A stretch of 64,000 nucleotides of DNA, taken from assembly GCA_002269645.1 (NCBI GenBank), contig NIVC01000975.1, forward strand, positions 124,001 through 188,000. Direction: 5' to 3'. Both the position numbers and the translations under genes were made by a program. Below the pieces are notes generated by a model, which had not been told where the DNA came from, made no database searches, and worked only from the letters and a program-made list of their open reading frames with translations. Origin of the DNA: Macrostomum lignano (lineage: Eukaryota). Position 1 is the first letter of the stretch, and the number at the start of each line of letters is the position of its first letter. This document shows, one piece after another, positions 1-44,178 of this stretch.

Positions 1-2
1 AC

Positions 3-737
3 ATTGCTTCCAGATATAAGGAAGCTCGCCCACTCAAGACGAAGAAGTCAGAAGCAGTTGCAGCCGCCCTCCAAGATATTTATAAAAACTCACCCCTTAG
101 TTACCCTGAAATCTTTATGACGGACCCGGGTAAAGAATTCATGGGTGCAGTGATATCACTTCTACATAAGTATGACACAAAAATTCGCTATGGAAGAACT
201 GAGCTCCACAGAGACCAGGCTTTTGTGGAAAGATTCAATCTAACTCTAGCCAAGAGGCTATTCACTAAGCAGACAGCAGAGGAGCTGAAACTAAAAGGTG
301 GCCAATACTATACCAAGTGGACAGACCGGCTCCCCACTGTTATAGAGCAACTGAACAATGAAGTCACGCGCATGACTGGATTGAAACCGTCCCATGCAAT
401 TAAACAAGACACTGTCGAACTTAAGTCATCTCATAGAACAGACACCTCAAACTACCCTAAGCTTCCAGGAGTTGAATCACCATACATACTGACAAACTCT
501 GAGTTTCTACGCTTTTTATATCTACCTGGAGAGCTAGAGAAAGACACCAAAAGAAGAGCTACAGATCCATACTTCAGCCTTGATGTACATAAAATAGACA
601 GACATTTTACCTCCGACTCTGGAGACTATTACTTTTTATCTCAAACCTTTAACCCTAAATCCCCCACGCGGTCATTCACTAGAGCTGAACTCCAGCCGTA
701 CCAGCTGACACGGAAATTAATTAAAATATTAAAATAA
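3..737 (+). CDS. Polinton rve integrase, left-arm copy, 5'-truncated by the window edge
   Basis: Mirror of 7608-8342. Carries the motifs IASRY, MTDPGKEF and QAFVERFNLTL. Confidence 0.9.
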   Translation: MASRYKEARPLKTKKSEAVAAALQDIYKNSPLSYPEIFMTDPGKEFMGAVISLLHKYDTKIRYGRTELHRDQAFVERFNLTLAKRLFTKQTAEELKLKGGQYYTKWTDRLPTVIEQLNNEVTRMTGLKPSHAIKQDTVELKSSHRTDTSNYPKLPGVESPYILTNSEFLRFLYLPGELEKDTKRRATDPYFSLDVHKIDRHFTSDSGDYYFLSQTFNPKSPTRSFTRAELQPYQLTRKLIKILK

Positions 738-740
738 AAA

Positions 741-1199
741 ATGACAAAGATTGAAACCAGAACCATCAATAAACTCAATAAAATCATTGAATCAAAGAGA
801 CCAGGTCTTATATCAATAAAAGGTGCCAAAGTAAAAGTCGATCCCGTGCAGCAAATAGTTCAATGTAATGAACAAAGACACAGCATCACAGATGAAAAGT
901 CAGGAGGAATCCTACCATTAGCAGCTCTTATTCCGATCATTGCAGGCGCTGTGAGTGCCGCAGGTGGTGTAGCTGGAGGTGTAGCAACTGCTGTTAAAGC
1001 TGGGAATGATAGAGCCCACCAGCTAGAATTGCAAAAGATTGCAAGAGACAAAGGTATAACAATTAAGGCAGGAGAGGGCTGCCCTGAGGGCTGCCCGGAT
1101 CGTGATGATTGTGAGAATGAAAATTCTATAAGCAAGTCTGACATTGTCAAAGCTATCATGACACTGCACAATGCTGGGTTTACAATAATGCGCATGTGA
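741..1199 (+). CDS. Small virion protein with adenovirus protein X (pX/mu)-like hydrophobic segment, left-arm copy
   Basis: SGG|ILPLAALIPIIAGAVSAAGGVAGGVATAV resembles the adenovirus pX C-terminus (RGG|ILPLLIPLIAAAIGAVPGIASVAL, recalled). The start context is AAAAATG, 3 nt after the integrase stop. Confidence 0.75.
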   Translation: MTKIETRTINKLNKIIESKRPGLISIKGAKVKVDPVQQIVQCNEQRHSITDEKSGGILPLAALIPIIAGAVSAAGGVAGGVATAVKAGNDRAHQLELQKIARDKGITIKAGEGCPEGCPDRDDCENENSISKSDIVKAIMTLHNAGFTIMRM

Positions 1200-1323
1200 T
1201 GAGGTTTAAAACCCCACTTTATCCAGCTTCATAAACCTAACACTACTTATAGGATGTAGAAACAGTTCAACTTTTCTATCAGGGTGGTCACCCTCAAAAT
1301 TTTTTTTTATTTTATAGAAAAAA

Positions 1324-4300
1324 ATGCCAAAAGCTAATCCAGCAAAAGATTTAGTCAACAGATATTTTTCAAAAGGCGTCTCATTTCAAGACAAAAGTAA
1401 TTTACTAAGAGAAGCATGTAAACAAAAGTTTAACACCGACCCTGGTCACCTGGGAAGCTATGAAAAACAGTTGGAAATCATCAATCAATTAGAATCCAAC
1501 CAGTATGCGCCTATACAAAATCCTGCAAAGGAACACCAAGAGAGGAGTCGCAACTTAGTTAACAAATACGAAACTCTCACTGGTGAAAAAGCAAAGTACC
1601 CACAAAATAAGCAGGAACAAGAGAAATTAGAGCAATTAATCCATTTAAAAGAGTCGGAGCTTGCCATTGAAGAGATTAATTTTGCACAGAGAAAGTTTAC
1701 AGAACATTACATCGAGTACACAATCCCAATTAAGGATACCACCGCAAACATCTACGACTATAAAGACAGCATCCAATCAGTTGTTGATCACACACTCAAA
1801 ACACGCAAGACCTTTAAACTACAGATATCATTCAAGATTGCATTTTATATGCCTGCAAAACCCACTGAGCATCTCGAGTATTACATGACAACAAAGGCAA
1901 AGCCATTCACCCCTACAGACACACTGGATCCTTTCCTTCAAGATGTCACTAAGAAAATTGAAGCGTTTACATCCAGAGGTTCCGGATGGGTCGTAGGAGG
2001 GATTCAAAGAGCGACTGTCATGGTCATGAAATATGACCCACTTAAAGCCTCCTCTTATATAGAGCTCCCACACAAGCTAGCCGGCAAAAAAGCTTGCATA
2101 AATGTTAAAAATAAAGACAATTGCTGTGCTCTATGGGCAGTTCTTTCTGCACTTTTTCATGATAGTGTCCCTCACCACCCTGAAAGAACCTCAAATTATC
2201 AAAATTATTTCAACTACTATCTCATTGAATGCGAAAAGAAGGGAATCAGGTTTGACAAAGGAGGCTTGGCGATCTCTCAGATCCCAAAGCTGGAAGAGGT
2301 GTTTAATAACAAAATTAGAATCACAGTCTTTGAGTGGAGTGAAAAAACTGAGAAAGTTCAACCGGTCAGATGTAGCAAAGACGTTTTAGATCCTGAGGGG
2401 AAAAGGCGGACTGAAGTGGATCTTCTAGTGATTGGTAATTTACTAGAGGAGGCTCACTATGTTTGGGTTAAAGATCTTTCAAGACTCATTCACAAGCAAT
2501 TGAATAATCATCACGAGGCTGTTGCCATCTGCCGCTTGTGCCTTAAGCATTACAGTGGACCTGAACGCTTTGAAAAACTAACAGAGCACGAATTATCGTG
2601 CGAGGATCACCCAACAAACTGCTCTCTTCCTTCAGCTGAAGAGAAGTATCTTCGGTTTAAGAACTATCACAAGATGGAGAAGCTCCCATTTGTTGTATAT
2701 GCTGATTTCGAATGCTCAATCGTGCCGGAAACACAAAAACAAACTCAAACTCAAAAACATGTCCCCAATTCAGTAGCATATGCCTTTATTAATACAAAAG
2801 GACTTGTTGAGGATAATTATTTCTTTGGAGAGCAGTGTGTGGAGCAGTTTATTGCCAGAATGTTAGAGTTGCAAAAAGTTATTAGCACCCTTCAACCTGT
2901 TCCAATAATGATGACTGAGGAGGATGAAAGCAATTTCCTATCAGCAACTCATTGCCACATCTGCAGGAAACATTTAACTTGCACTAATATTAAAAACCCC
3001 ACCGTTAGGGACCACTGCCACTTTACTGGGAAATTTAGAGGTGCAGCGCATAGCACCTGTAATCTAAAGCTAAAATCGAACATTCATGATCTAACGATAT
3101 TTTGTCACAACGCAAAAAACTATGACATGCATTTAATAGTTGAAAAAATCGGCATGATTCCAGACATACACCTTGACTGCATCGCAGAGAACAAGGAGAA
3201 GTTTAAGTGTGTTGATATTAAACAGGATAATTCGGGTACAGGTAAAATAAGACTGAAGGATTCATATCAATTTCTAGCTGCCAGTCTAGACGAACTAAGC
3301 AAGAATCTAAAAGATGAACAATGTACATATACAAAGATGTTTGCAAGTAAAATTTACAACAGTGATGAATCATTTAAACTCCTGAGAACCAAAGGCTTCT
3401 ATCCCTATGAAAATATTACTGGGTATCACGTATTTGAAGAAGGTTTACCACCACAAGAAAAGTTCTTTTCAAAGCTAACAGACTCTGGAATCTCTGACAA
3501 AGACTATGAGCACGCGAAGCATGTCTATAATTACTTTAATTGTCAAAACTTCTTCCAGTATCACCTGCTTTACCTCTTCACAGATGTGTTTCTGCTGGCC
3601 GATGTGTTTGAAACCTTCAGATATACCTGGTACACAGCATATGGCCTCGATCCTGCACATTATGTGTCCCTGCCTGCCACTAGCTGGGAATCTTTGCTTA
3701 AAATGAAATGGGATCAAGATCCAGATTGGTACATTGAACTTCTTACAGACATTGACATGTACAATTTTGTCGAATCGTCAAAACGAGGGGGGATCTCAAT
3801 TTGCGTTAACAGGTATGCAAAAGCAAACAATCCCTACATTGAATCTTACAATAAGGAGCAGCCCTCAAACTACATTACTTACTTGGACGCTAATAATCTC
3901 TACGGGTGGGCGATGAGTCAAGATCTTCCAGTTAGAGATTTTCGATGGCTACCCTCATCAGAATTCAAACAGGACTTTTCATTGGCTGCCATTTATGAAG
4001 TTGATGTTTACCGTACATTCCACCAGAGCTTCACGACTATTTCTCTGACTTTCCACCCTTCCCAGAGAACATTAAGTGCCCGAAAATAATCGAAACTCCC
4101 AATGATAATAATGGAACTTGGCACCTGTCAGGAACAGAAAAAGAACATACAGAGAAACTAACACAGAATCTAAACAACAAGACACGTTACAAAATCCATT
4201 ACAAACTGCTTCAGTATTTTATCTCACTTGGTTGCAGGGTCACCAAAGTTCACCGGGCTCTTACATTTACAGAGGAAGCGTGGATGAAACCCTACATTGA

Positions 4301-4424
4301 TAAGAACACCCAGTTTAGGACCAAAGCAACCAACGACTTTGACAAGAACCTCTTTAAGTTGGCCAACAACTCTGTCTATGGCAAGACTCTTGAGAATGAG
4401 CGGAAAAGAACAAACCTGAGATCT
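1324..4424 (+). pseudogene. Protein-primed B-family DNA polymerase (pPolB), one frameshift near 4009-4013, truncated at the fold-back
   Basis: ExoI VYADFEC, ExoII FCHNAKNYD, the EndoVII-like RDHCHFTGKFRGAAH segment and motif A YLDANNLYGWAM are in frame 1. After the shift, frame 3 (4014-4424) reads YIPPELHDYFSD...KLANNSVYGK (motif B). Motif C is absent. Confidence 0.92.
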
Positions 4425-7021
4425 TGACTCATCGCCCACCCGTAGAGATTATTAGCGTCCAAGTAAGTAATGTAGTTTGAGGGCTGCTCCTTATTGTAAG
4501 ATTCAATGTAGGGATTGTTTGCTTTTGCATACCTGTTAACGCAAATTGAGATCCCCCCTCGCTTTGACGATTCGACAAAATTGTACATGTCAATGTCTGT
4601 AAGAAGTTCAATGTACCAATCTGGATCTTGATCCCATTTCATTTTAAGCAAAGATTCCCAGCTAGTGGCAGGCAGGGACACATAATGTGCAGGATCGAGG
4701 CCATATGCTGTGTACCAGGTATATCTGAAGGTTTCAAACACATCGGCCAGCAGAAACACATCTGTGAAGAGGTAAAGCAGGTGATACTGGAAGAAGTTTT
4801 GACAATTAAAGTAATTATAGACATGCTTCGCGTGCTCATAGTCTTTGTCAGAGATTCCAGAGTCTGTTAGCTTTGAAAAGAACTTTTCTTGTGGTGGTAA
4901 ACCTTCTTCAAATACGTGATACCCAGTAATATTTTCATAGGGATAGAAGCCTTTGGTTCTCAGGAGTTTAAATGATTCATCACTGTTGTAAATTTTACTT
5001 GCAAACATCTTTGTATATGTACATTGTTCATCTTTTAGATTCTTGCTTAGTTCGTCTAGACTGGCAGCTAGAAATTGATATGAATCCTTCAGTCTTATTT
5101 TACCTGTACCCGAATTATCCTGTTTAATATCAACACACTTAAACTTCTCCTTGTTCTCTGCGATGCAGTCAAGGTGTATGTCTGGAATCATGCCGATTTT
5201 TTCAACTATTAAATGCATGTCATAGTTTTTTGCGTTGTGACAAAATATCGTTAGATCATGAATGTTCGATTTTAGCTTTAGATTACAGGTGCTATGCGCT
5301 GCACCTCTAAATTTCCCAGTAAAGTGGCAGTGGTCCCTAACGGTGGGGTTTTTAATATTAGTGCAAGTTAAATGTTTCCTGCAGATGTGGCAATGAGTTG
5401 CTGATAGGAAATTGCTTTCATCCTCCTCAGTCATCATTATTGGAACAGGTTGAAGGGTGCTAATAACTTTTTGCAACTCTAACATTCTGGCAATAAACTG
5501 CTCCACACACTGCTCTCCAAAGAAATAATTATCCTCAACAAGTCCTTTTGTATTAATAAAGGCATATGCTACTGAATTGGGGACATGTTTTTGAGTTTGA
5601 GTTTGTTTTTGTGTTTCCGGCACGATTGAGCATTCGAAATCAGCATATACAACAAATGGGAGCTTCTCCATCTTGTGATAGTTCTTAAACCGAAGATACT
5701 TCTCTTCAGCTGAAGGAAGAGAGCAGTTTGTTGGGTGATCCTCGCACGATAATTCGTGCTCTGTTAGTTTTTCAAAGCGTTCAGGTCCACTGTAATGCTT
5801 AAGGCACAAGCGGCAGATGGCAACAGCCTCGTGATGATTATTCAATTGCTTGTGAATGAGTCTTGAAAGATCTTTAACCCAAACATAGTGAGCCTCCTCT
5901 AGTAAATTACCAATCACTAGAAGATCCACTTCAGTCCGCCTTTTCCCCTCAGGATCTAAAACGTCTTTGCTACATCTGACCGGTTGAACTTTCTCAGTTT
6001 TTTCACTCCACTCAAAGACTGTGATTCTAATTTTGTTATTAAACACCTCTTCCAGCTTTGGGATCTGAGAGATCGCCAAGCCTCCTTTGTCAAACCTGAT
6101 TCCCTTCTTTTCGCATTCAATGAGATAGTAGTTGAAATAATTTTGATAATTTGAGGTTCTTTCAGGGTGGTGAGGGACACTATCATGAAAAAGTGCAGAA
6201 AGAACTGCCCATAGAGCACAGCAATTGTCTTTATTTTTAACATTTATGCAAGCTTTTTTGCCGGCTAGCTTGTGTGGGAGCTCTATATAAGAGGAGGCTT
6301 TAAGTGGGTCATATTTCATGACCATGACAGTCGCTCTTTGAATCCCTCCTACGACCCATCCGGAACCTCTGGATGTAAACGCTTCAATTTTCTTAGTGAC
6401 ATCTTGAAGGAAAGGATCCAGTGTGTCTGTAGGGGTGAATGGCTTTGCCTTTGTTGTCATGTAATACTCGAGATGCTCAGTGGGTTTTGCAGGCATATAA
6501 AATGCAATCTTGAATGATATCTGTAGTTTAAAGGTCTTGCGTGTTTTGAGTGTGTGATCAACAACTGATTGGATGCTGTCTTTATAGTCGTAGATGTTTG
6601 CGGTGGTATCCTTAATTGGGATTGTGTACTCGATGTAATGTTCTGTAAACTTTCTCTGTGCAAAATTAATCTCTTCAATGGCAAGCTCCGACTCTTTTAA
6701 ATGGATTAATTGCTCTAATTTCTCTTGTTCCTGCTTATTTTGTGGGTACTTTGCTTTTTCACCAGTGAGAGTTTCGTATTTGTTAACTAAGTTGCGACTC
6801 CTCTCTTGGTGTTCCTTTGCAGGATTTTGTATAGGCGCATACTGGTTGGATTCTAATTGATTGATGATTTCCAACTGTTTTTCATAGCTTCCCAGGTGAC
6901 CAGGGTCGGTGTTAAACTTTTGTTTACATGCTTCTCTTAGTAAATTACTTTTGTCTTGAAATGAGACGCCTTTTGAAAAATATCTGTTGACTAAATCTTT
7001 TGCTGGATTAGCTTTTGGCAT
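4419..7021 (-). pseudogene. pPolB, right-arm copy, truncated just after motif A
   Basis: Its translation matches the left copy up to MSQDL, then reads into the antisense of the spacer and stops at 4376. Confidence 0.92.
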
Positions 7022-7145
7022 TTTTTTCTATAAAATAAAAAAAAATTTTGAGGGTGACCACCCTGATAGAAAAGTTGAACTGTTTCTACATCCTATAAGT
7101 AGTGTTAGGTTTATGAAGCTGGATAAAGTGGGGTTTTAAACCTCA

Positions 7146-7604
7146 TCACATGCGCATTATTGTAAACCCAGCATTGTGCAGTGTCATGATAGCTTTGACA
7201 ATGTCAGACTTGCTTATAGAATTTTCATTCTCACAATCATCACGATCCGGGCAGCCCTCAGGGCAGCCCTCTCCTGCCTTAATTGTTATACCTTTGTCTC
7301 TTGCAATCTTTTGCAATTCTAGCTGGTGGGCTCTATCATTCCCAGCTTTAACAGCAGTTGCTACACCTCCAGCTACACCACCTGCGGCACTCACAGCGCC
7401 TGCAATGATCGGAATAAGAGCTGCTAATGGTAGGATTCCTCCTGACTTTTCATCTGTGATGCTGTGTCTTTGTTCATTACATTGAACTATTTGCTGCACG
7501 GGATCGACTTTTACTTTGGCACCTTTTATTGATATAAGACCTGGTCTCTTTGATTCAATGATTTTATTGAGTTTATTGATGGTTCTGGTTTCAATCTTTG
7601 TCAT
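7146..7604 (-). CDS. pX-like small virion protein, right-arm copy
   Basis: Mirror of 741-1199, 152 aa. Confidence 0.75.
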   Translation of the reverse strand: MTKIETRTINKLNKIIESKRPGLISIKGAKVKVDPVQQIVQCNEQRHSITDEKSGGILPLAALIPIIAGAVSAAGGVAGGVATAVKAGNDRAHQLELQKIARDKGITIKAGEGCPEGCPDRDDCENENSISKSDIVKAIMTLHNAGFTIMRM

Positions 7605-7607
7605 TTT

Positions 7608-8615
7608 TTATTTTAATATTTTAATTAATTTCCGTGTCAGCTGGTACGGCTGGAGTTCAGCTCTAGTGAATGACCGCGTGGGGGATTTAGGGTTAAAGGT
7701 TTGAGATAAAAAGTAATAGTCTCCAGAGTCGGAGGTAAAATGTCTGTCTATTTTATGTACATCAAGGCTGAAGTATGGATCTGTAGCTCTTCTTTTGGTG
7801 TCTTTCTCTAGCTCTCCAGGTAGATATAAAAAGCGTAGAAACTCAGAGTTTGTCAGTATGTATGGTGATTCAACTCCTGGAAGCTTAGGGTAGTTTGAGG
7901 TGTCTGTTCTATGAGATGACTTAAGTTCGACAGTGTCTTGTTTAATTGCATGGGACGGTTTCAATCCAGTCATGCGCGTGACTTCATTGTTCAGTTGCTC
8001 TATAACAGTGGGGAGCCGGTCTGTCCACTTGGTATAGTATTGGCCACCTTTTAGTTTCAGCTCCTCTGCTGTCTGCTTAGTGAATAGCCTCTTGGCTAGA
8101 GTTAGATTGAATCTTTCCACAAAAGCCTGGTCTCTGTGGAGCTCAGTTCTTCCATAGCGAATTTTTGTGTCATACTTATGTAGAAGTGATATCACTGCAC
8201 CCATGAATTCTTTACCCGGGTCCGTCATAAAGATTTCAGGGTAACTAAGGGGTGAGTTTTTATAAATATCTTGGAGGGCGGCTGCAACTGCTTCTGACTT
8301 CTTCGTCTTGAGTGGGCGAGCTTCCTTATATCTGGAAGCAATGTCAATAATTGTAAGAGCATACTTGTAGCCTGAGTCGTTGGGGAGAAACAAAAGATCT
8401 GCTTGGTGCGCTTCATTAGGTTTATAGATGCTAAAGTGAGGTCTTGTAAATTTTACTGGTGGGAAATAGACTTGAAAGACAGCCTGCTTAGAGAGCCACT
8501 TTTCTACTTTAGCTTTTGGTTCCTTACTTAGTTCTGCGAGTTTGGTGACTGCATTTTTTCCTACAAAGAATCCTTTGTCGCTGTAGTAGAGTTTTTTAAG
8601 TTTCTGATCTGTCAT
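7608..8615 (-). CDS. Polinton retroviral-like (rve) integrase, full length (~335 aa)
   Basis: The DDE triad is intact (HQADL, MTDPG, VERFN) and YALTIIDIASRY is present. The likely start is MTDQKL at 8615, in AAAAAATG context. No C-terminal chromodomain is seen. Confidence 0.93.
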   Translation of the reverse strand: MTDQKLKKLYYSDKGFFVGKNAVTKLAELSKEPKAKVEKWLSKQAVFQVYFPPVKFTRPHFSIYKPNEAHQADLLFLPNDSGYKYALTIIDIASRYKEARPLKTKKSEAVAAALQDIYKNSPLSYPEIFMTDPGKEFMGAVISLLHKYDTKIRYGRTELHRDQAFVERFNLTLAKRLFTKQTAEELKLKGGQYYTKWTDRLPTVIEQLNNEVTRMTGLKPSHAIKQDTVELKSSHRTDTSNYPKLPGVESPYILTNSEFLRFLYLPGELEKDTKRRATDPYFSLDVHKIDRHFTSDSGDYYFLSQTFNPKSPTRSFTRAELQPYQLTRKLIKILK

Positions 8616-8645: not shown

Positions 8646-9173
8646 ATGCAACGCTCTGGTGGTAAGTTAGATTCACATGGACTGATAGAAAAGCTTCCTC
8701 ATCCAAACAAAGGCTGGACACTTCCCGGCTATAAATATTGCGGGCCTTTGAATCCACTTGAAATACAGTTAGATAAAAACAATAATCCACATCCTGGGCA
8801 TGAGCCTGTGAACGAGCTAGACTCTGTCTGCATGTGGCACGATGTTAAATATAGAGATTTTCCTGAGGAGAAGAATCGCTGGGACAAAGAAATGCTTAAG
8901 AGACTAGACAATATAGGGGCTTAAAGCGGATTTCGTGAGTCGATTGCTCGGAAGCTAGTTAAAGCTGTTATTTTTAGTAAGGCAAAGTTGGGTTTGGGGG
9001 TTCAAGGCGAAGGTGGGTGTTTGGGGAGAGAGGGCGGGTGTGCGGAAAGAGAGGGCGGAGGCTTGGAAGCAGGGTTTATTTTGTGTGCTCCTAACAAGAA
9101 ATTGGGAAGACTGCTGAAAGAGCTGGGGGTAGAGAGAGCGCGCGTGGGGGAGAGAGATTTTCACTTTAACTGA
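8646..9173 (+). pseudogene. Parvovirus-type phospholipase A2 domain protein with an in-frame TAA at 8922-8924
   Basis: GYKYCGPLNP (Ca-binding loop-like) and DSVCMWHDVKY (HDxxY). After the TAA the same frame continues GFRESIARKLVKAVIFSKAKLGLG, the KxKLGxG-type ending typical of Polinton PLA2 ORFs. Confidence 0.8.
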
Positions 9174-9274
9174 GCCCAGCCGGGGAAGAATTCCGTCTCG
9201 AGTGAAGGCCAGAATGCAAAGGATTTCGGCCTCGCGCGAGGCCAAAATGAAAACGATTTTGGCCTTTCAGTTTT

Positions 9275-9517
9275 TTAACGCAATTGCTTAATGATTTCTG
9301 CAAAGTTATAGTAGCTGTCGTAATCTTTTACATAGGTTACTCCATACTTATGAAACCAGTGTCTTTGGAGAGCTAGATTAATATTAGGGACATTGATATG
9401 AACGTCGGGCCAATATTTTCTCATGTACTCGCTGCATTCTAGTTTGCATCGGTACTTGGATTTGTACAATGGATGAGGCTGAGTATAATAGGAACCTGGA
9501 GAGACAACTGGAAACAT
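9275..9517 (-). CDS. Small orphan ORF (80 aa) of the Polinton-like element
   Basis: It has the same AATAAAAATG start context as the neighbouring viral genes. No recognisable domain. Confidence 0.5.
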   Translation of the reverse strand: MFPVVSPGSYYTQPHPLYKSKYRCKLECSEYMRKYWPDVHINVPNINLALQRHWFHKYGVTYVKDYDSYYNFAEIIKQLR

Positions 9518-9860: not shown

Positions 9861-10751
9861 AGTGAAAAATTTTGTCCCAGAAGCCCCCTCATGCCTACTA
9901 CTCCTATAGAATCTTACTATAACCATGATTCTGGATAAAAGAAACAATATGAATAGAACAGAAATCGGTCCGAGAACGCACTGTTATTCTGAGTCGAAGA
10001 AAGTACAACAAAACAATTTTAACGCTGTAGTAATTTTGAGCACATGTTAGCCACCTCTAACATTCGAATTCAAAGTTAATAAATTATATCGTTCGCCGCA
10101 GTGGTCTTTTGCTAAAATGGGCTGAAACCCATTAATGACACTGTTTTAAACGGCAATAACGAATTGGTTCAGGCTGTATATACAGCGGTGCCAATTAAAA
10201 GCGTCAATAGTTTAGCCAAGTCCGAAATTTCTCTACGATTAAGTAATTAACCATATCGATTCTTCCCTCAGCTGAAAATCATAAAGCATTCTGGATAGGT
10301 TTGCTGTTCGAACTTAGAAGTCTCTAGCTTTGCTAAACAGGATCATATCATGGGCAATACTATATTCATGAATTCATGATATTTTAATTATATCCATGAT
10401 CGATACCAAGAAGCGCACTTTAACGTACGTCGAATGTAGAAAACGCATTGTTTTATTTCAATTTTTATGCAATTTAAATGAGCAAACTACTTACAGACAG
10501 ACAAACTACTGAGAAAGCCAAACAGGCTTCTTGCCTGAGCCAAACTTACTACTTCTACTACTACTACTTTGTCAGTAAACTTTCTTTGTTTTTGTTATAA
10601 CGTGAATTACAATGCGTACATTTAAAATTAATAACGTGCTAAGCGTACATATTAAAAATATTACGCATTTGTTTCCCCATTGATATTCGCATTGATATTC
10701 GAATTTTAACAAAAGCAAAATACTAAAAACAACCAGTACAAGTAAAACTTC

Positions 10752-11096
10752 AAGATCGGCAACGAGCGAGTCACCAACACGGCGCTCTATCATCGCGCCG
10801 GCCTGGCCCGTCCTAGCGATCTGCTGCGCCGTCGGCGACTCCAGCTGGCAGGCCACGTCATCCGCGCCGAGGCCTACTGTCCGGAGCCGGTGCAGGAGGT
10901 GCTGCTACTTACGTTGCAGGCACCCTACCGGCGGGGACAGGCGAGGACTCGGCGCTACGTCGACTGTCTGCTGGCTGACGCCGGCGCCCCGGACTCTGCC
11001 GGCGGTGCGGCTTTTGTTCGCGCCCAAGCTTCGAAGCGCGCCATCTGACGCTGCTTTTGCGAACTGGCAGCGTACTCTGTTGTTGTTGTTGTTGTT
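10752..11096 (+). mobile_element. 5'-truncated RTE-type non-LTR retrotransposon 3' end with (TTG)n tail
   Basis: Translates as KIGNERVTNTALYHRAGL...LRRRRLQLAGHVIR...RRGQARTRRYVD...* (stop at 11046-11048), the typical RTE ORF C-terminus. A (TGT)6 tail follows at 11078-11096. Confidence 0.8.
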
Positions 11097-11097
11097 T

Positions 11098-11930
11098 GGA
11101 ATCACATGTATTTTAAATAGAACACATCGAAAATCGCTCCTGCTCAGAGCCAAAGTTACATATCGAGCTGAAACTTGACCAATAGTCGTTTCACGGTTGC
11201 AGTTTACTCTGTGTAAAGTTTCGTCAAGATCAGTGAAGCAGAAGTACCTGTACTCGAATATCAATATGAATTTTGGAATCACATGTATTTTAAATAGAAC
11301 ACATCGAAAATCGCTCCTGCTCAGAGCCAAAGTTACATATCGAGCTGAAACTTGACCAATAGTCGTTTCACGGTTGCAGTTTACTCTGTGTAAAGTTTCG
11401 TCAAGATCAGTGAAGCAGAAGTACCTGTACTCGAATATCAATATGAATTTTGGAATCACATGTATTTTAAATAGAACACATCGAAAATCGCTCCTGCTCA
11501 GAGCCAAAGTTACATATCGAGCTGAAACTTGACCAATAGTCGTTTCACGGTTGCAGTTTACTCTGTGTAAAGTTTCGTCAAGATCAGTGAAGCAGAAGTA
11601 CCTGTACTCGAATATCAATATGAATTTTGGAATCACATGTATTTTAAATAGAACACATCGAAAATCGCTCCTGCTCAGAGCCAAAGTTACATATCGAGCT
11701 GAAACTTGACCAATAGTCGTTTCACGGTTGCAGTTTACTCTGTGTAAAGTTTCGTCAAGATCAGTGAAGCAGAAGTACCTGTACTCGAATATCAATATGA
11801 ATTTTGGAATCACATGTATTTTAAATGGAACACATCGAAAATCGCTCCTGCTCAGAGCCAAAGTTACATATCGAGCTGAAACTTGACCAATAGTCGTTTC
11901 ACGGTTGCAGTTTACTCTGTGTAAAGTTTC
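11098..11930. repeat. 177-bp tandem repeat, ~4.7 near-identical copies
   Basis: The unit start ggaatcac recurs at 11098, 11275, 11452, 11629 and 11806. Confidence 0.97.
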
Positions 11931-12262
11931 ATTGTACTGGTTGCTTTTAGTATTTTGCTTTTGTTAAAATTCGAATATCAATGCGAATATCAATGGGGAA
12001 ACAAATGCGTAACATATTACTAGACCGTCTGGGAACGTAGCACAAAGTTCGCTACGCTTCCGTGTGAACGGCCTTTGTGTTACGCTCCGCTCCCATCTAA
12101 GCGGTAGTCTATAGGGTGAGCTGGCTGGCCAGGGCTAACATCAACATGTTCACGGTGTTCGGTGTTCTGATTCTGAGCGAGCAGCTAGCGAAAAAGACAA
12201 CGATAGAATGACTTTGAATATCATATTGTTGATTTTACTTTTACAGACAGATTCATTTGGCG

Positions 12263-15200
12263 AAGTAGACTTATAAGTTATATTTATAACTTTTAACTTT
12301 TTAGTTTTAAAAACAGGAACAGACCAGGTAGGAGGTGGCTCAGGCATAGCACTAGGAGTCTAGGTGTCTACCTACTACCTAGCCTAGGTAGACATATAAC
12401 ATGGCATGCCATGGCCTTTATATAGTATATGCTATTGCCTATCCCCATAGCCTAATATGTATATTTACTCTATGTTTATAAATATTTAGTATAGCCATAG
12501 GCCTAAGTTAGTGCCAAGTGTTACTGCATGAATAGTCTATATGATGATAGGCCTAGTAGCTTAAATACTATTAGCTTTTTATAATTATTACCATTTAATA
12601 CTTATTGGAATTCAAAAGATTATAGCTATACTCTAGAAGATGTAGTGCATGCCAGAAAATTTTTGGCATATATTCTAAAACCTAAGTAGTATGCATAGCA
12701 TGCAAATGAAAAAATATGTAGTTGTCAGCATTAGCATGCACTATCTATGCAATTGCTATGCAGTGTGTATGTCATGGCATGCTAATGTATGCGCATAATA
12801 TATATGATTGCTTAGGCCCTATAAAATTTTTAGATCTAGGCCTATTATTTTCATTATAGGCCTATTTGAATAAATTATTAAATATTAGACTTCTATTGGT
12901 CTTAACTCTCTTACATAAGCCTAGTCTAAATTTCATTACAATCTCCTTTGACCTTTCCCTTGTTTTTGGTGTATAAGAGTCATATTCATAAGACCTTATA
13001 TTGAATTTGTTTGGTATCAGTGTATATCAATATCAATACATTGATCCATCAATTATCAATATCAATAGGTTATATATATCTAATAACCCTTTGGTATTCT
13101 ATTCTTTAAATATATTTTAATATTTTATATTAATATATTATATTAATATAATATATTAATATTTTAATATTTTAAAGTTTTAACTTTATATATTTTCCCT
13201 AAAAGTATTGGTATTACTGTTCTATTCTATAATAATTAGGTCTGTCATCTTTGCTAGGCAGCTTTAGCAATAAGCTAAAATTCAATTGTAACTATCTAGG
13301 CCTTTTCATGCAATAGTTAGACCCTATATATACTATACTAGCAAGTTTAATTCAAAGTGGCTGCTATGCTTATGGCATTTAGCTTCTTATGCCACCCTTT
13401 AGTATTATTCTTTTGTGCATGTCTTTCTTGTAAACTTGTAAACTTTCTTATAAACTTTGTAAAAACATAGCTTACATATAGTTATATAGTTTTAAACACT
13501 AGTTGGAATAAAGGTTGTAGCCAAAAAAACTATTGATTAATTTCTTTGTATAGAAAAAAATAACAGCAATATTAATTTGTTGCATATGGAATGCACTTTG
13601 AAGTTAGAGCATATACAAAGTTTATGGTCTAGAGTTTTGAATATAGTGGTAAATTACTTAAAGTTGCATGTTTAAAGGCACAAGTAAGTATAAACTAGCA
13701 AAGCTTATAATACAATTTAATGCTAAAAGTGAATCCTATTAAAGATATCACCATTAGGCTGAAAATATAACTATTGCCTTTTCAATAACTTTTATCTTAT
13801 AACTTTAAACCATAACCCCTTGACAACTATAGTGACAACCAATTGATAACCAATCATTGACAACCATATCCCCATTGGTTTATTGGCTGTATTCACTGAT
13901 ACTCTGATAGCCACAATCTCCATTGGTCTATTGGCTGTATTTATTAATAATTAGAATTTGTCATTGTCTATTAAAAAGATGTCAAATGAGAAAAGAATCT
14001 ATTTGATTCTAGTATATAGCATATAGGCCAAAAAACATTCATTTCTATATTGTATATTCAAGACTATAGATTGTCACAATCTAATAGAAAATTTATTTCT
14101 AGTTTAGAAAGTATTAAAATCACTATTATATATAAATATATTAAATATCATTGTAGATATATAAAAATATAAAATATAATAATAGTGGTTCTAATTCTAA
14201 TACATTACATATATTATTTTTGCAGGAAATTATTTCCCAAAGCATTACTTTTTGGGAGCCTTACAATATATAAATTAAGACACCAAATATATTTTATTTG
14301 ATAGGCTACTTCTTAGTATGCAATTTTACCTAAAATATTTTGGGCATATACATTCATATATGCTAGTAATATATTTTTTATGTTTTCTTGCAGTAGATAC
14401 CCAAAATTATCTATGAGTAAAATTAGGGTCTTAAATAAATGTTCATGATGGGGTTTAGGATTAATAACAAAAGTAGCTAATTCAATCCCAAATAATACTT
14501 CATGATATAACAAAGCATAAAGAGCCAATTTTGGTACCATCATAAATATTTTTTAAAGGTTGTAATGATTTATATGAGGATTTTCAAAGCAAAATAAAAC
14601 TTATATGGCTACACCTGCATTATGTTTTCCTTTTTGTGCTTTTTCTATACTAAATATGCTTTCTATGTATTTTTATTTACTATTTTGCCATAAAAATTTT
14701 GACAAGAAATGTATAAAAATGGACTCATTTGCTAATAACCTTGTGATATCTTTTCAGTTTTTGTTTTTAAAAATTAATTAAATAGGTTCAAATTTAACTA
14801 GATTTGCATGAAATTTTTCTATAATATAATATAATATTAGTCATTGAGCCAGTTAGCTTTTAGAATGTCTTATAGAAGACTTCAAAATGTAGTTTCTTAG
14901 TCATATTGACCTTGCAGCTTGGGCATGGCAGTAATAAAGATAAGCTTGCATGCATCCACCTTTTCTGCTAGCATCAAGCATAGAACCAAGAAATGATGGC
15001 AAATTTAGCACAATAACAAAAAAAGATCAATGAAATATAGAAGTAGACACAATACATTTTTATGCAAGCTGAAAAGAGAGAAAGTGCCCTGCATTTTGTA
15101 GTACAAAAAAACAGTAAAAAACTGGACTGACTATGATTCTAAATGACTAAGTTCTCTAAGTGACTATGCTATGTCTTTTTTGACTAGGGGTTTAACCTTT

Positions 15201-16150
15201 TGACATTTAAATTTGCAGTTTTTTGATAGATTGAATGCATCAATAAAAGTGCCATAGAGCAAAAAGGCCTGTCTCATTCATTTACTAAACTAAGCCAGAC
15301 ATTTTAAAGACTTAAAATTGGTATTTACATGGTAAACCTTTTTGCTCTAGAGTTTTTTAAAACTACAATATATGTATGTCATATAAAATGTTGCTGTAGT
15401 CTCTTTTTCTCCCATTATTTTTTTTTTACTTTGGGTTCACTTTTTTAGAAAATCAAAAAACCAATTCTATATTCTTTATTTAGTTAGCAAGTACGCAGAA
15501 ATTTAGTTGAGCTGTTTTTTCTAGAATTGATCATAAACATACATACCAACAAACCATTTTAGTATATGGATTTCAATAGAAACAAAATCTATAATTGCTT
15601 CTTGGATTTGATGAGCAAATAAGAAGTAAGACAGTTAAGCATCTATTCCACTTTTCATTTTTTGAGATCTTGTCATTAGCAACTCAAAGTCTTGGGTAAT
15701 GCTGTGGGTCGAGTTATTTTGTTTAGCTAGATAATATTTTTTTGAATTAGCCACGGCAGACTTTGGCCTATGGCCTAGTGGGAGCTTTCATACTGTATGT
15801 CTAAGAAGAATGCTTGGCTTATGTGGAAAAGGCAAAGCTAAGCTAAGTAAGCTAAGAAACAAATAAATGGTAACTGCAAAACTACAAAGCAACAGGTAAA
15901 GTTGCCAGCTTAAAATTCTCAAAAGTTGGGTAACTTAAGTCTGTTTAAAGTTCAACTTATTTCAAAATCTTAAGTATCTCTGTAGACCCAAATGTATCTC
16001 AAATTTAGCTAAAAAATTTCTGTAGAACACATTTTAGCTTTGTCACAACTTTCCTAGTCATTTCTTTAGTTCACCTTCACTTGTCTTTGTTTGATCTGTT
16101 TTCTCTCTGTCTAGCTCAATCTTGTTATTCTTATCTCTCTCTCCCTTGCT
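12263..16150. other. AT-rich, CpG-depleted island, probably a hypermutated transposon relic
   Basis: I counted one CpG (12792) between 12263 and 15493 and only a few more up to 16150. TA, TG and CA dinucleotides are abundant. The flanks are rich in CpG. Confidence 0.8.
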
Positions 16151-16521
16151 GCCTTCTGATTGGCTCTCCATTCTTGACTCTCTCTTTAGTCGCGAACTCC
16201 ACCCCTCTCTTTATTATTCTAGGCTCAACCCCCCCCCTTAAGTTAGTTTTATAAATACACTGGTTTAGACCCTGCGCCTACTTACTGCTCCTTCTGTCCT
16301 ACTATTCAACTTAGCTCTAATTATTTAGTCTCATTAATTATTTTCTTTACAGCTTTCTCTTTTGTCTCTTTACTGAACGCTCAATTATTCTCATCCTTAA
16401 AGTAAATAATATTACTTTTACAGTCCCAAAAGTCTCTACCGCTCCGCATTGCAGCTCAAGCAGTCACAGGCCTCGAGCATCGGCATCTCAGCACTGATCG
16501 CAGCCCCACAGTTTCTCAGAG

Positions 16522-17199
16522 ATGCGCCGGGGCTCTGTAGCCTGCCCCTTTTGTCCCAGGCGGTTCTGCCGCACTCGAGCGGCAGTGTCGCAGTACTTGC
16601 GTCATGTGCGGTCACACGGAATGGGCTGCGACTCGGAGCCAGAGGAGGCGGCTGCGACCAACTCAGAAGCTGGCAGAGCGGCGGCGGTCGAGCAGGTCGC
16701 GTCTCGCAATGAGTCAGCGATGCAGCCGTGTGCAGACGGCAGTCGTGCAGTGACGAAGCGTCACGAGTGCGAGTCAGTCGGAAAGACCCGAGCTACAAAG
16801 AGTGCTGCAACAAGGCATTGTCAGGCTCAGGGTGTCCAGAGGCCGATCCAGTGCAACACTTGCCAGAAGAATTTCTCCAGAAAAAGCGAACTCAAAGCTC
16901 ACATTAGTGCAGTGCACTGGAAGAAGAAAAGGCACGAGTGCAAGTGGTGTGGGAAGTCCTTCGCAAAAGCATTTCATCTACACGTGCACATCCGGTCTCA
17001 CACTGGAGAGAGGCCGTTTGAGTGCGATGTGTGCGGCAAGAGATTCAGTGTCAGCAGCAGCTTTACGAGGCACTCCAGAGTGCACACCGGAGAAAAGCCA
17101 TTTGAGTGCGAGATGTGCGGCAAGAGATTTAATCGAAGCAGCCACCTCGCTAGGCACTCAAGAAGGCTGCATGCTGGAGAAAAGGCATTTTTTGTGTAA
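16522..17199 (+). CDS. C2H2 zinc-finger protein, paralog 1 (intact, 225 aa, atypical N-terminal finger plus 4 fingers)
   Basis: N-terminal CPFC...HVRSH, followed by CxxC-x12-H-x3/4-H fingers with TGE(R/K)PF linkers. Confidence 0.85.
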   Translation: MRRGSVACPFCPRRFCRTRAAVSQYLRHVRSHGMGCDSEPEEAAATNSEAGRAAAVEQVASRNESAMQPCADGSRAVTKRHECESVGKTRATKSAATRHCQAQGVQRPIQCNTCQKNFSRKSELKAHISAVHWKKKRHECKWCGKSFAKAFHLHVHIRSHTGERPFECDVCGKRFSVSSSFTRHSRVHTGEKPFECEMCGKRFNRSSHLARHSRRLHAGEKAFFV

Positions 17200-38442: not shown

Positions 38443-38816
<374 letters not shown>

Positions 38817-38860
38817 AACTGACACACCGCTGCAATGAGTCTATATTGTCAACACACTTC

Positions 38861-41800
38861 ATGAAGTACACTTGGACCGAATTAGCAGGCGATTTCGATC
38901 GCCTATCGAGCCTGGTTGCGGAGCTCGAATCCCGTGACGCTTCGGATGGCAACGACATCGAAGATCTTGTTGATTTAACCGACGCTGAACCGGCCCAGCT
39001 GCTGCAGCATCTGGCTAGCGAGGATGGGCATCGAAGGCCTCAGGAGCTGCGCCTGGTGTTCGCTGTTGCCACCCACTGTCTGGCCGCTCTGGCCAGCAGA
39101 AGTGCCACAGCGAATCAGCGATGCCAGGCCCTCGTTGAATCGCTGGTTAATGATCATCTTGGCAGCGTCTACAGAGCGTTGGATCCCGCCAACAGTGCCG
39201 GGGTGGTCAAGTCGGCCCTGCGCTGTCTGGCAGCCATGGCTTCGTGCGATGCCAGCTCTGCCAGGACTTTGCTGCACTCCATCGATTTCGGTGCCAAGCG
39301 TTGGCAGACCCTGGCTAGGAGGCGGAATCCCGCTGACTCCCAGGACATCCGGCACTGCTGCGTTCAGCTGGGCGTGGCGTTCCTATTGGCTGGCGGTGAG
39401 AGCTGGACTCTGGGAAAAGGGGGCACTGGGAGTCTACAATGTCGCACGCATCATCTTGGCTTTTCCCATTCAAGGAACCCCAGCTTTAGGTCCCATCCTG
39501 CCATCCCGAATACCCATCCTAAAATCCTCAATACCCATCCTACAATCCCCAATACCCATCCTACAATCACCAATACCCATCATAAAATTCCCAATACCCA
39601 TCCTACAATCCCCCATACCCATCCTACAATCCCCCATACCCATCATACAATCACCAATACCCATCCTACAATCCCCCATACCCATCCTACAATCCCCCAT
39701 ACCCATCCTACAATCACCAATACCCATCCTACAATCCCCCATACCCATCCTACAATCCCCCATACCCATCCTACAATCCCCCATACCCATCCTACAATCC
39801 CCCATACCCATCATACAATCCCCAATACCCATCCTACAATCACCAATACCCATCATAAAATTCCCAATACCCATCCAACAATCCCCAATACCCATCCTAC
39901 AATCCCCAATACCCATCCTACAATCCCCAATACCCATCATACAATCCCCAATACCCATCCTACAATCCCCAATACCCATCCTACAATCCCCCATACCCAT
40001 CATACAATCCCCAATACCCATCCTACAATCACCAATACCCATCATAAAATTCCCAATACCCATCCTACAATTCCCAATACCCATCCTACAATCCCCAATA
40101 CCCATCCTACAATCCCCCATACCCATCCTAAAATCCCCAATACCCATTTAACAATCCCGAATACCCATCCTACAATTCCCAATACCCATCCTACAATCCC
40201 CAATACCCATCCTACAATCCCCAATACCCATCCTACAATCGCCAATACCCATCCTACAATCCCCAATACCCATCCTACAATCCCCAATACCCATCCTACA
40301 ATCCCGAATACCCATCCTACAATCCCCAATACCCATCCTACAATCGCCAATACCCATCCTACAATTCCCAATACCCATCCTACAATCCCCAATACCCATC
40401 CTACAATCCCGAATACCCATCCTACAATTCCCAATACCCATCCTACAATCGCCAATACCCATCCTACAATCCCCAATACCCATCCTACAATCCCCAATAC
40501 CCATCCTACAATCCCCAATACCCATCCTACAATCCCTAATATCCACCTACAGGCGGCTCCGGCGGTCCCATTGTCCGCGCTTTTCTCGACCGAGCCGCTG
40601 ACTTTGCCAGCCTCCTGCTGGACCGACTTGAGGCAGACAAGCCGTCAACTCTGCTGCTGCTGCTGCCGGCCCTGTCGGACAGGCTGATGTCGGCGGGCTG
40701 CGGGGTCAGCAAGACTCAGAAAGCCCGACTGTTTGGCCGCCGACAGCTCACCAGCCTGGCCAAGCTGTTGACTTACACGACTCCCACTGTGTCATCAGCG
40801 AGGCATCGAACTGCTGACGAGGAGGATCTTGCGATGCCGGTCGACGACGAAGACGATAGCGAAGGCCTTGGCGAGTCCGCGCTCGCCGTACGCGAGTCGG
40901 CGCACCGACTGCTGCGCCGGCTGGGCACGTCCCGACGCGACGGCATTCTGTTCCGGCGAGGCGAAAATCCCCTGCTGTGCCACCTGCTGCTCGGCTGTCT
41001 GGCGAGGAGGATCGTGTCGAATGGTCGGTGCCGACGGCTGGCCGCCGGAATTGCTCGAGGATGCCCGGAGCTGACGGCCCGCCTGACAACTGAGGTGCTG
41101 GCGCCGCTGCTGCCGCCTCGACCGACGCCCGGCTGGCTGGCCGCCGCTGACTGCCTCGCCGCCGTCTGGGGCGTCGACGATGGCGACGCTGGCGACGCAG
41201 AGGAGGACGGCGACGGCGAAGCGGCAAGAATAGCTCTGGCCGCCGTTGTCAAGGACGCCGCTCAGCTATTGTCGTCTGTTGATAAGGACGCCGCCGCAAC
41301 GTTATTGAAAGGTCTGCTGGTGCCGGCTGGCGGCGTGTTGGAGCACCTGGCCGCCGGTCTGGCGCTGCCGGACGGCGCCGATGGTGACGTCACCAAAGAC
41401 GCCCCCGCCACCGTCCGCTCTCGGTGTCGACGAATCCGACGAATTCTGGCGCGTCGGCTGGCCTTCGCCATGCGCGTCTGGCGTCGGGTAGCCGGCGGGG
41501 GCGACGGCGCCGGCGACGAAGATAAGTCGACAATTATTGTAGAGGTCGTGAGCTTGTTAGGCGATCCGCTCGGTCTGGTTGCCAAGGCAACGGAGCTAGC
41601 CGATGCAGGCTCCGGTCATAGTGACGAAGCTGAAGCTCTGGTAGCTAAGGCGATCGTCGGCGCGTCCAGCGACGGAGCAGCTGGCGGTGAAGCTTCCAAA
41701 GCATCGCTGACGTCCGTCAGAGTCGATCAAGGAGGTCCCGCCGCTGCGGACGAGGCCGACGAAGAGGAGAGAGTTGTCGAAGAGTTGCCGGCTTGCTCGT

Positions 41801-44178
41801 GTGACCTCGCCGACATTTCCGAGCGTCGGCAGGCGGCAGCGGCTCGGATAGCTGGCAGAGACGGACAGCCTGCCGTGCCTGTGTCGGTGGATTCGTGGCT
41901 TCGATTTTGTCGGAAGTCGCTGCAGATGGAACCAGCAGCTGTGGCTTGTCCCATTATCGACGCTGTCTGCATCGGAGCTGATGAAGATTCCGACGGCAAT
42001 GCAGCTGCCGCTGTCTTGAAACTGGCGCTGGACAATCCGGTTATTCGTCAAATTTTATTGCAAACAGAAGATTCCACCACCGAGTCTCACTCTCATGTTG
42101 CTAAGGCCTGTCCTCGCCTTCTCGACGCTGTTCTGACCATGCTGTGCCGTCTCGCCCTTCGAATGTCCTCGCCGACGCCTCCGCCAGCTGAACTGGCCAT
42201 CCGACTGGCTGGTCCGTTGATGCTACACTATGGCGCTAGCCTGTCTCGCCGAGATCAGCTCATTGTGTCCGTTGTGCACCGCCTGCGGCGCTCCCTGCCA
42301 GCCGACCTCAGCCAGTGCTGCTGGGCCGGCCGCCTGGCCGAATGTCGAAGATTTCAACCGGATTTGAGCAGTCGGCTGTTCGCCTGTCCGCCGCCGGCTG
42401 GCATTTTGGCACAGCTGGAGCCCAGGTGTGTGTTTTTGCTGCTGTTTTATGTACTGATCTGACTACTGATCGATTGGATTGTTAGTAGTATTATACTTAT
42501 TTGTCATTTTTTAGTCTATAACTTCTTCGCAGATTCAATTCATTAGAATCTCCCTGTGTCTCAGTCTGAGATTCTCTGAGTCCAATAGAATCGCACTGTG
42601 TGTCTCAGTCTGAGATTCCCTGGGCCCATTAGAATCTCACTGAGTCTCTCAGTCTGAGATTCTTTGAGTCCATTAGAAACTCAGTGTGTGTTTCAGCCTG
42701 AGATCCTGAGTCCATTAGAATCTCAGTGTGTGCTTCAGCCTGAGACTCCCTGAGTCCATTAGAATCTCACTGTGTCTCTCAGCCTGCGACTCCCTGAGTC
42801 CATTAGAATCTCACTGTGTCTCTCAGCCTGAGACTCCCTGAGTCCATTAGAATCTCACTGTGTCTCTCAGCCTGAGACTCCCTGAGTCTATTAGTTTCTC
42901 ACTGTGTCTCTCAGCCTGAGACTTCCTGAGTCCATTAAAATCTCACTGTGTCTCTCAGCCTGAGACTCCCTGAGTCCATTAGAATCTCACTGTGTCTCTC
43001 AGCCTGAGACTCCCTGAGTCCATTAGAATCTCACTGTGTCTCTCAGCCTGAGACTCCCTGAGTCTATTAGAATCTCACTGTGTCTCTCAGTCTGAGACTC
43101 CCTGAGTCCATTAGAATCTCAGTGTGTGCTTCAGCCTGAGATCCTGAGTCCAATAGAATCGCACTGCTTATGCTCAAAACCCGCCGCTCCCAGGCGCATT
43201 CTGTACACGGCTCTGCACTTTCCGCTGGACCGGCCCTGGCTGAGCCACCCAAAGCCGTTCGCCGAGCCATCCAAGCCGGGCCTGTACGACCCCTGCTGGC
43301 TGCTGCCTCTGCTGTGCCGCCTGTTGCCATCGGGTCTTGAAGCCAGTGCGGCTGTGCGGCACCACTGTCTGGCCCTGGCCATTGCGGCTCTGTCAAGCCA
43401 TTCAGAACGAGTCCGACTGCTAGCGCTAACCGTGCTGGCCAACCTGCACTCCGCCTGCTCCGGCCAACAAGCTCAACGATTCCCTGAACGGGATCAGACT
43501 CGCTACCTGATTGACGTGGTCCGGTGCACTTTGACATCGGCCACCCGACGCCTGCCTTACCTCATTGGTCTGTTCCTGGCCCGCTGCGCGGAGACAATGC
43601 TCCGACCGCAGCAGAGGATGTACAGCCTGCTGTGGAAATTCCTCACCGCCCGCTCCTCGGTGCAGCTGAACGCCGCTCCGGAGCTGTGGCGCTTCCTCAT
43701 GTCCGATCACGTTGATCATCGGGTCGAGCGTCAGTGGCTGTTGAACCTGTTCGCTCAGGGCGTGCGCGACCTAGAAGACTACAGGCTGCTGGAGAGAAGC
43801 TTCGCTGTCAAAACACTGCTGGCTGTCTATCCGGCATTGGATGGCACCGCCAAGTGTCTGACACTGCAGCTGCTGTGCCGACTGGCCAGCCTTCGACCTG
43901 CTGCTGTCAGTTTAGTGAACCGGCACCAGCTAACCGTCTGGCTGTCTTCTGTCACCTGCGGCCCTGCTGACTCGCGTCAGTTGGTTCTCTGCCGGCGATT
44001 GATCAATCTGCTGTGGAGCTGCTTGCTCGGCTTGCGGACTGCGGACAGCCTGCCGGAGCATTTCGTCAGCCAGATGCGCTGTCTGGTGTCGCTGCCTGCC
44101 TTCAGCGACTGTTTGGAGTTGAAGACTGTGCGAGATCAGGTTGGAGATTGGCCTGCTGTCTCTGCTGCTGATGCCTGA
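38861..44178 (+). CDS. URB1: Nucleolar pre-ribosomal-associated protein 1 (URB1/Npa1); join(38861..39395,40553..42425,43194..44178), ~1130 aa
   Basis: The GT-AG joins keep the frame (3393 nt). Npa1-like N-terminus: [40 protein letters not shown]. NopRA1-like C-terminus: [37 protein letters not shown]. Confidence 0.85.
39505..40540. repeat. 21-bp minisatellite (aatacccatcctacaatcccc) filling URB1 intron 1
   Basis: Read directly from the sequence; lies between the donor at 39396 and the acceptor at 40552. Confidence 0.97.
42530..43165. repeat. 44-bp minisatellite filling URB1 intron 2
   Basis: Unit gagtccattagaatctcactgtgtctctcagcctgagactccct. Confidence 0.95.

Follow-up and report, generated by a model that had tools for sequence, protein, structure and literature searches.

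The closest described counterparts of the locus reported here are systems in which cytosine methylation or repeat-targeted mutation marks particular parts of a genome. In the gene-body methylation of invertebrates such as honeybee, oyster, amphioxus, and Ciona, DNMT1 and DNMT3 enzymes, a bimodal ratio of observed to expected CpG (o/e), a bias towards broadly expressed genes, and a scar of CpG decay are found together, and the mark is enriched in exons or extends across gene bodies (PMC9246332, PMC7343188). In the centipede Strigamia maritima and the mealybug Planococcus citri, promoters are methylated upstream of genes with unmethylated exons; the mark is on lowly expressed genes, and transposons are methylated in general (PMC7343188). 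Further literature for comparison is available (PMC10658182, PMC3333190). Methylated transposons of vertebrates and fungi decay from CpG to TpG and CpA on both strands, about tenfold above other C>T changes, with the loss graded among copies. Finally, repeat-induced point mutation (RIP) in Ascomycota leaves AT-rich, C-depleted repeat patches with raised TpA (PMC7882544). Here, these systems are compared with an AT-rich, almost CpG-free segment of the Macrostomum lignano genome, at 12263–16150 of a 64,000-nucleotide stretch (the window; assembly GCA_002269645.1, contig NIVC01000975.1, positions 124,001 to 188,000 of the forward strand).

The segment resembles each of these systems in part. The enzymes, the bimodal CpG o/e, the bias towards broad expression, and the decay scar of gene-body methylation are all seen in M. 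lignano, but its exons and downstream introns keep CpG (o/e 0.7–1.0), and it is the DNA ahead of the first exon that has lost it. This position is like that of promoter methylation in the centipede and the mealybug, upstream of genes whose exons would be unmethylated, whereas the genes concerned are those for proteasome, ribosomal, and translation proteins, and transposons elsewhere keep CpG. The direction, strand symmetry, size, and grading of the decay are those of methylated transposons; however, decay in M. lignano follows the landing place of a copy, not its repeat family. In the same way, the patches recall those of RIP, but the indices, the strand pattern, the dependence on duplication, and the enzyme all fail to agree with it.

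A preliminary description of this DNA, made from the sequence alone, had counted a single CpG in 12263–15493, and a recount agrees: the only one is at 12792 (o/e 0.02; GC 28%), where about 62 would be expected. In 1000 base shuffles of this stretch, the mean was 61.8 CpG and the minimum 44. Over 12263–16150 there are 4 CpG (o/e 0.05), against an o/e of 0.61 for the whole window. The left edge is abrupt, directly after a CpG-rich block at 12007–12261, and the right edge is gradual, from 15494 to about 16400. The fading towards 16.4 kb that had been described is also seen, with CpG back at 15494, 15710, and 15754 and normal from about 16190–16440, and so is the CpG richness of the neighbours (for instance, o/e 0.7–1.1 in a Ngaro-type element). 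The loss is not an effect of AT content, because equally AT-rich DNA elsewhere splits into two groups: among 69 AT-matched 500-bp bins (25–34% GC), 27 had an o/e below 0.3 and 41 an o/e of at least 0.5. The CpG-free run of the segment is the longest of those sampled. An array in it that had been read as mutated ATCGAT has no unmutated counterpart among the fetched loci.

The direction of the loss can be read from a transposase relic inside the segment (13187–13716, minus strand), which has no CpG, while a CpG-rich paralogue has 35. Compared over 13191–13716 with this paralogue, which is not its true ancestor, the relic shows 47 C>T and 44 G>A changes, and 5 T>C and 10 A>G; the excess of C-to-T and G-to-A over an unmutated relative, a check that the preliminary description had suggested, is thus confirmed on this interval. 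By context, C>T affects 31/63 CpG, 31/70 CpA, 21/68 CpT, and 8/39 CpC sites, with T>C at 15/262 and transversions at 47/502. In less decayed copies of the relic, CpG was lost first and CpA afterwards. In two young families of miniature inverted-repeat transposable elements (MITEs; rates from the 30/34 and 12/15 copies kept), C>T stands at 19% and 26% for CpG, about 4% for CpA, and 1–2% for CpT and CpC, with T>C at 0.3–0.4% and transversions at 0.7–0.9%. CpG in these families decays at about 10–14 times the rate of CpT and CpC, and about 60 times the rate at which T>C rebuilds it, on both strands. A CpG excess in C>T of about tenfold or more is expected of the deamination of 5-methylcytosine (5mC), and the context order CpG >> CpA > CpT > CpC matches the preferences of DNMT3. 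With T>C so slow against so fast a loss, the resting level of CpG would be near zero. Loss outside CpG is also raised: two copies of the segment show non-CpG C/T differences at 75 of 881 C sites, compared with 7 of 354 in the flank (p = 7e-6), with equal transversions, and an age-matched element lost CpA at 30/132 sites inside such CpG deserts vs 29/295 outside them. MITEs whose flanks are CpG-poor have a higher CpA rate (6.1% vs 2.6%), but a pair of duplicate loci (L169/L176) inflates this figure.

A second contig (C647) carries the locus again, including its two flanks and the zinc-finger gene that follows it, and the segment there is equally CpG-free. The two copies differ by about 4% substitutions, alike in the segment and at its borders; the CpG-rich block at 12007–12261 is not better conserved than the segment (4.2% vs about 4%, from these two genomic copies). 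The C647 copy has two additional MITEs of 372 bp and 600 bp, each with a target duplication, which arrived after the split and correspond to empty sites in the window at 13715–13730 and 14056–14070, respectively. At less than 1% transversions, they have already lost 5/20 and 18/58 of their CpG cytosines; thus, decay acts in place and recently. As for the 372-bp MITE, most of its copies (L166–L185) are in or beside deserts, which suggests that it prefers insertion at gene starts.

The segment had been taken for one element. Instead, genome searches resolve it into a patchwork of at least four mutually unrelated repeat pieces, and it is one member of a genome-wide class. The pieces are a fragment of a small dispersed repeat (12569–12812), whose relatives found are also almost without CpG; the transposase relic; an eroded reading frame (14220–14699, minus strand); and a high-copy repeat at the fading right border (16015–16351), with 3 CpG vs 7–8 in its relatives and 1158 candidate matches in the first genome search. 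Pieces known only from this locus and its C647 copy are decayed as well. A Mutator-like family for the relic is a lead only, from an Atlas feature score of 0.94 to a cluster with PF10551 in 11% of its members; Pfam and two protein searches gave no match for 13187–13716. The minus-strand frame reported earlier does exist, with 4 TAA stops; Pfam, a word-based protein search, and local phmmer gave no match for it, and the organism's own genome gave only the second copy. It may resemble the end of a non-long-terminal-repeat reverse transcriptase.

Where related repeats have landed in different places, the loss is set by landing position over repeat family or age. In tails that we take to be of the long interspersed nuclear element type (LINE-like), 24 of 106 CpG are kept in three copies with CpG-poor flanks and 121 of 143 in four copies with CpG-rich flanks, setting aside five rows (two intermediate, three near-identical). 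The tails with CpG-rich flanks keep CpG even at 16–18% transversions, and one CpG-poor copy stands at less than 6%. One such tail lies outside the segment at 10761–11070 and keeps all of its 41 CpG, whereas its relatives inside other deserts are decayed. Similarly, a 550-bp element (6 of 17 rows used) keeps 2/16 CpG in two copies inside deserts, and 9–13 of 13–16 in four equally diverged copies elsewhere.

The genome screen for similar segments proposed in the preliminary description shows that deserts make up 4–6% of non-tandem bins. An o/e below 0.1 is found in 15/374 bins from 274 kb of the window's contig and in 12/206 bins from 14 random 10-kb stretches, 6 of which have a CpG-free run of at least 600 bases. 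All 11 unselected deserts (5 on the contig, 6 random) lie 5′ of the start of a gene or open reading frame (ORF), although 2 rest on ORFs alone and 3 are partly 2–6 kb from the ATG. Behind the other 9, there is Pfam support for zinc finger, BTB, PDZ, two LRR, BCL11A-like, prefoldin, RPS8, and GTPase genes. Deserts reached through repeat searches precede XPG, RPL37A, PITP, WH2, RING, hnRNP-Q-like, and GTP_EFTU genes, and deserts also precede the DNMT1 and DNMT3 genes. The GTP_EFTU gene, that of L169/L176, had been considered to be actin, which was rejected on account of this domain; its product is presumably eIF2-gamma. The CpG loss had been seen in the preliminary description; its position before the first exon of a gene had been missed.

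To remove the selection of genes by their desert, genes were also sampled first. A CpG-free run of at least 600 bases within 5 kb upstream is present in 7 of 14 proteasome genes but in 1 of 26 G protein-coupled receptor (GPCR) genes (p = 0.001), and in this one exception the desert precedes the EF1-gamma gene. As regards the seven proteasome genes without one, in two cases a desert lies directly before an upstream gene on the same strand (HMG-box, TM9SF), in one it is farther up a same-strand cluster, one gene stands behind a same-strand gene, and three are unexplained. The bias towards broad expression, which is assumed from gene family or identity, is that of gene-body methylation, and depletion of exons or gene bodies is not found. 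Nor are these lowly expressed genes, to judge by their identity, as they include RPS8, RPL37A, EF1-gamma, prefoldin, and proteasome subunits.

When genes are aligned on their ATG, o/e is 0.05–0.09 between positions −400 and −1000, rises to about 0.5 by −4 kb, and stands at 0.86–1.0 past the ATG (21 genes, most of them picked by their desert); GPCR genes have a flat o/e of about 0.8. In AT-rich DNA, o/e is 0.15 upstream of the start vs 0.86 and 0.71 downstream (22 genes). The depletion stops where the first coding exon begins or shortly after: in a few genes, it reaches up to 450 bases into exon 1, the loss there being partial, and many genes retain CpG in the last 150 bases ahead of the ATG. 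Deserts are also almost devoid of the minisatellites with which introns in this genome are filled. Tandem repeats cover 0–8% of the 3 kb before the ATG in 21 desert genes, whereas their coverage is 20–50% in introns and in most of the bins upstream of GPCR genes. When 97 CpG-poor bins are compared with 94 AT-matched CpG-rich bins, TAGGCCTA is 3.4-fold and AGGCCT 3.8-fold enriched in deserts, where GGCC has an o/e of 6.2; no paper containing the word TAGGCCTA was found.

The enzymes that such a scar calls for are encoded. A genome search gave 12 matches among 15 candidates, in three sets, and four translated loci read as DNMT1 (RFD and BAH domains), DNMT3 (ADD domain), and a gene that we take to be DNMT2-like. 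With both DNMT1 and DNMT3 present and C>T at CpG about tenfold over other C>T on both strands, the locus has what is seen in 5mC decay. A screen for RID-like enzymes, also proposed earlier, revealed no fourth class of the RID or DIM-2 type, although a very divergent enzyme could escape it. The loss of the PWWP domain from DNMT3 was considered as a cause and rejected, as a PWWP-like exon is present: its best matches in a PDB search are DNMT3B, and Pfam does not score it. This domain (L313:4103–4312 and 8850–9419) is intron-split and divergent, and may have a different histone specificity. Low global methylation together with both DNMT1 and DNMT3 has been described in M. lignano (PMC11292947).

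A second feature of gene starts in this species is trans-splicing. According to the work in which the M. lignano spliced-leader sequence was published, 30% of its genes are trans-spliced, 70% of these being conserved and many in operons, and conserved genes are mostly trans-spliced (PMC8629364). The segment ends just before an acceptor at which the zinc-finger family would take this leader. Contigs that start with the tail of the leader (from runs X20 and X24, both guessed to be RNA) join this family at an acceptor homologous to 16454/16455, although the sequence after the junction agrees better with sister copies than with the window copy; the read comparison covers the right part of the segment. 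Shallow contigs of run X11 within the segment may be DNA and were set aside. The leader, together with an exact match to a published promoter primer, points to M. lignano or a very close relative as the source. In the window, the CAG acceptor is at 16452–16455 on the plus strand, and it is followed on that strand by a C2H2 zinc-finger ORF with normal CpG (16498–17199, ATG at 16522), the first of a same-strand cluster.

What the scars suggest, at even chance in our estimate, is that the segment is a nest of transposon fragments that lost their CpG in place through germline 5mC on a zone before the first exon, most likely the outron. DNMT3 would set and DNMT1 would keep 5mC in the genome-transmitting cells, over 2–4 kb immediately upstream of the first exon in broadly expressed genes, probably in the outron that trans-splicing discards. 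Transcription would start at the CpG-rich upstream border, spontaneous 5mC deamination would erode whatever lands in the zone regardless of family, the weaker CpA component would come from off-target DNMT3 activity, and the low T>C rate would push CpG towards its near-zero resting level. That a 5mC zone exists at gene starts, be it in the outron or in the upstream flank, is highly probable, and the placement in the outron taken alone is evenly balanced. A wider formulation, that M. lignano methylates the outrons of housekeeping genes and operon heads, leaves exons and introns unmethylated, and ends the mark at the trans-splice site, is plausible but more tentative.

The outron is favored because of the leader junction, the sharp upstream borders, the depletion through some ATGs, and a weak sense-strand avoidance of acceptors and AATAAA in deserts (uncorrected). 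Alternatively, the promoter could be close to the first exon and the 5mC scar could lie on the flank upstream of it, which would not be transcribed, as a methylated shore spreading 2–4 kb outwards; this is possible, although we lean away from it. It would agree with a depletion that is on average deepest near the gene and weaker outwards, and with the CpG retained by many genes in the 150 bases that precede the ATG. In the window, the high-copy repeat just before the acceptor (16015–16351) could itself be the promoter source. However, the DNMT3, L147, and hnRNP-Q-like genes are depleted through the ATG into exon 1, which fits poorly with a start there and with an ADD-bearing DNMT3, which H3K4me3 excludes, and left borders look sharp, by eye, in single loci. 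The cis-spliced EF1-alpha gene bears on both placements. Far upstream its o/e is 1.03; over the 1.1 kb that lead up to a CpG-rich cluster at the presumed start it drops to 0.37–0.46, and the coding region is CpG-rich. Such a depletion is expected of a methylated flank, but it is only partial. The cloned EF1-alpha promoter is functional (PMC5730564).

Several observations weigh against a methylated outron or, more generally, against a methylated zone before broadly expressed genes. The partial depletion upstream of the presumed EF1-alpha start is not predicted by a methylated outron, per-gene strand skews are not significant, and 3 of 28 motif tests reached p 0.02–0.04, uncorrected; strand tests of donor and poly(A) motifs did not tell outron from flank. 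One desert precedes the gene of a BCL11A-like transcription factor, which is not housekeeping, and in 5 of the 7 proteasome genes without a desert, none lies directly before a Pfam-identified upstream gene. First exons were called from ORFs and not from RNA, and samples were small. In addition, in three MITE families the CpG content of the flanks did not correlate significantly with CpG loss (rho −0.29, −0.30, and −0.02), and a fourth gave rho −0.57 with each palindromic copy counted twice. Finally, two copies inside deserts retain 21–22 of 22 CpG; these may be recent arrivals.

Methylation might also be guided to the transposons themselves, for instance by PIWI-interacting RNAs on nascent RNA, with transposons landing near promoters. 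Deserts consist of transposon debris and most of 20 MITE loci (10 kb each) are in or beside CpG-poor runs, as this would predict. Nevertheless, it is unlikely, as copies of the same families that lie outside the zones, among them those in DNMT3 intron 1, have kept their CpG, AT-rich DNA downstream of the start has an o/e of 0.7–0.9, and non-repeat first exons are also depleted. A mutator that works without methylation, for example a cytidine deaminase acting on single-stranded DNA near promoters, would fit the raised non-CpG C/T differences of the segment at equal transversions, but the roughly tenfold dominance of CpG, the equal hits on both strands, the lack of a consistent TG/CA skew (14/24 genes), and the presence of both methyltransferases make it very improbable. 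The preliminary description had itself proposed either a RIP-like, duplication-triggered hypermutation or DNA from a heavily methylated genome, and the directional C>T and G>A excess, the second rank of CpA (31/70 in the relic; 30/132 vs 29/295), and the raised TpA (o/e 1.08 in the segment vs 0.74 for the window) speak for it. The raised TpA that had suggested RIP is, however, due to the CpA-weighted non-CpG loss. RIP is recognized by strand-coherent C>T bursts within one copy, whereas almost every copy of the young MITEs with several hits has a mixture of C>T and G>A at CpG. Duplication did not act as a trigger, since CpG is kept both in copies that are 99.5% alike and in the 177-bp tandem array beside the segment, and single-copy pieces are affected. 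The TpA/ApT ratio of 1.06 and the (CpA+TpG)/(ApC+GpT) ratio of 1.35, or 1.03 and 1.38 for pooled deserts, also fall outside the cut-offs for RIP, a product index >1.15 and a substrate index <=0.75 (PMC7882544), and there is no RID-like class among the 12 methyltransferase matches. As for foreign DNA or a contaminant, the second contig carries the segment with both flanks, segment and flanks have diverged to the same extent since the split, and resident MITEs are decaying in place there. Thus, the heavy, methylation-type cytosine loss that had been described stands, but hypermutation by RIP, a single affected element, and a foreign origin are extremely unlikely.

The locus as a whole is then composed as follows. 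The desert, an AT-rich nest of eroded repeat fragments and a putative germline-methylated zone (outron or promoter flank), extends over 12263–16190 between the CpG-rich block and the first exon of the zinc-finger gene. The block at its sharp left border (12007–12261, plus strand) is a candidate promoter region, and its first ~110 bases are a low-copy repeat. Adjoining this border is a young insertion (10655–12018), a CpG-rich element that has inverted ends, encloses the 177-bp tandem array, and is missing from the C647 copy. Downstream, the same-strand C2H2 zinc-finger cluster (16498–37750) includes at least four copies that share this acceptor, is interrupted by the Ngaro/DIRS-type element, and probably forms a single operon-like unit headed by the desert. 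It is followed on the same strand by an Npa1/URB1-like gene (38786–44178) that has minisatellite introns and no desert directly upstream. Farther to the left, a perfect 3.9-kb inverted repeat (1–3926 and 4419–8344) of a Polinton-type region, with polymerase-like and integrase ORFs and a CpG o/e of about 0.5, may be an assembly foldback.

In our search, which covered openly accessible papers, no M. lignano methylome, no work tying methylation to outrons, and no earlier mention of CpG deserts 5′ of genes were found. The evidence presented here consists of sequence scars in small samples, and it predicts that 5mC is concentrated within a few kilobases upstream of the first exon in broadly expressed genes and is scarce in other places. 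If this is true, the usual invertebrate layout would be nearly reversed in M. lignano, and its low global methylation would be explained. DNA methylation could then be connected with trans-splicing and with the heads of operons, in an animal used as a stem-cell model for which transgenesis and RNA interference are available. Moreover, if the methylated zone is indeed the outron, the scar would map the hidden promoters of trans-spliced genes across the genome.

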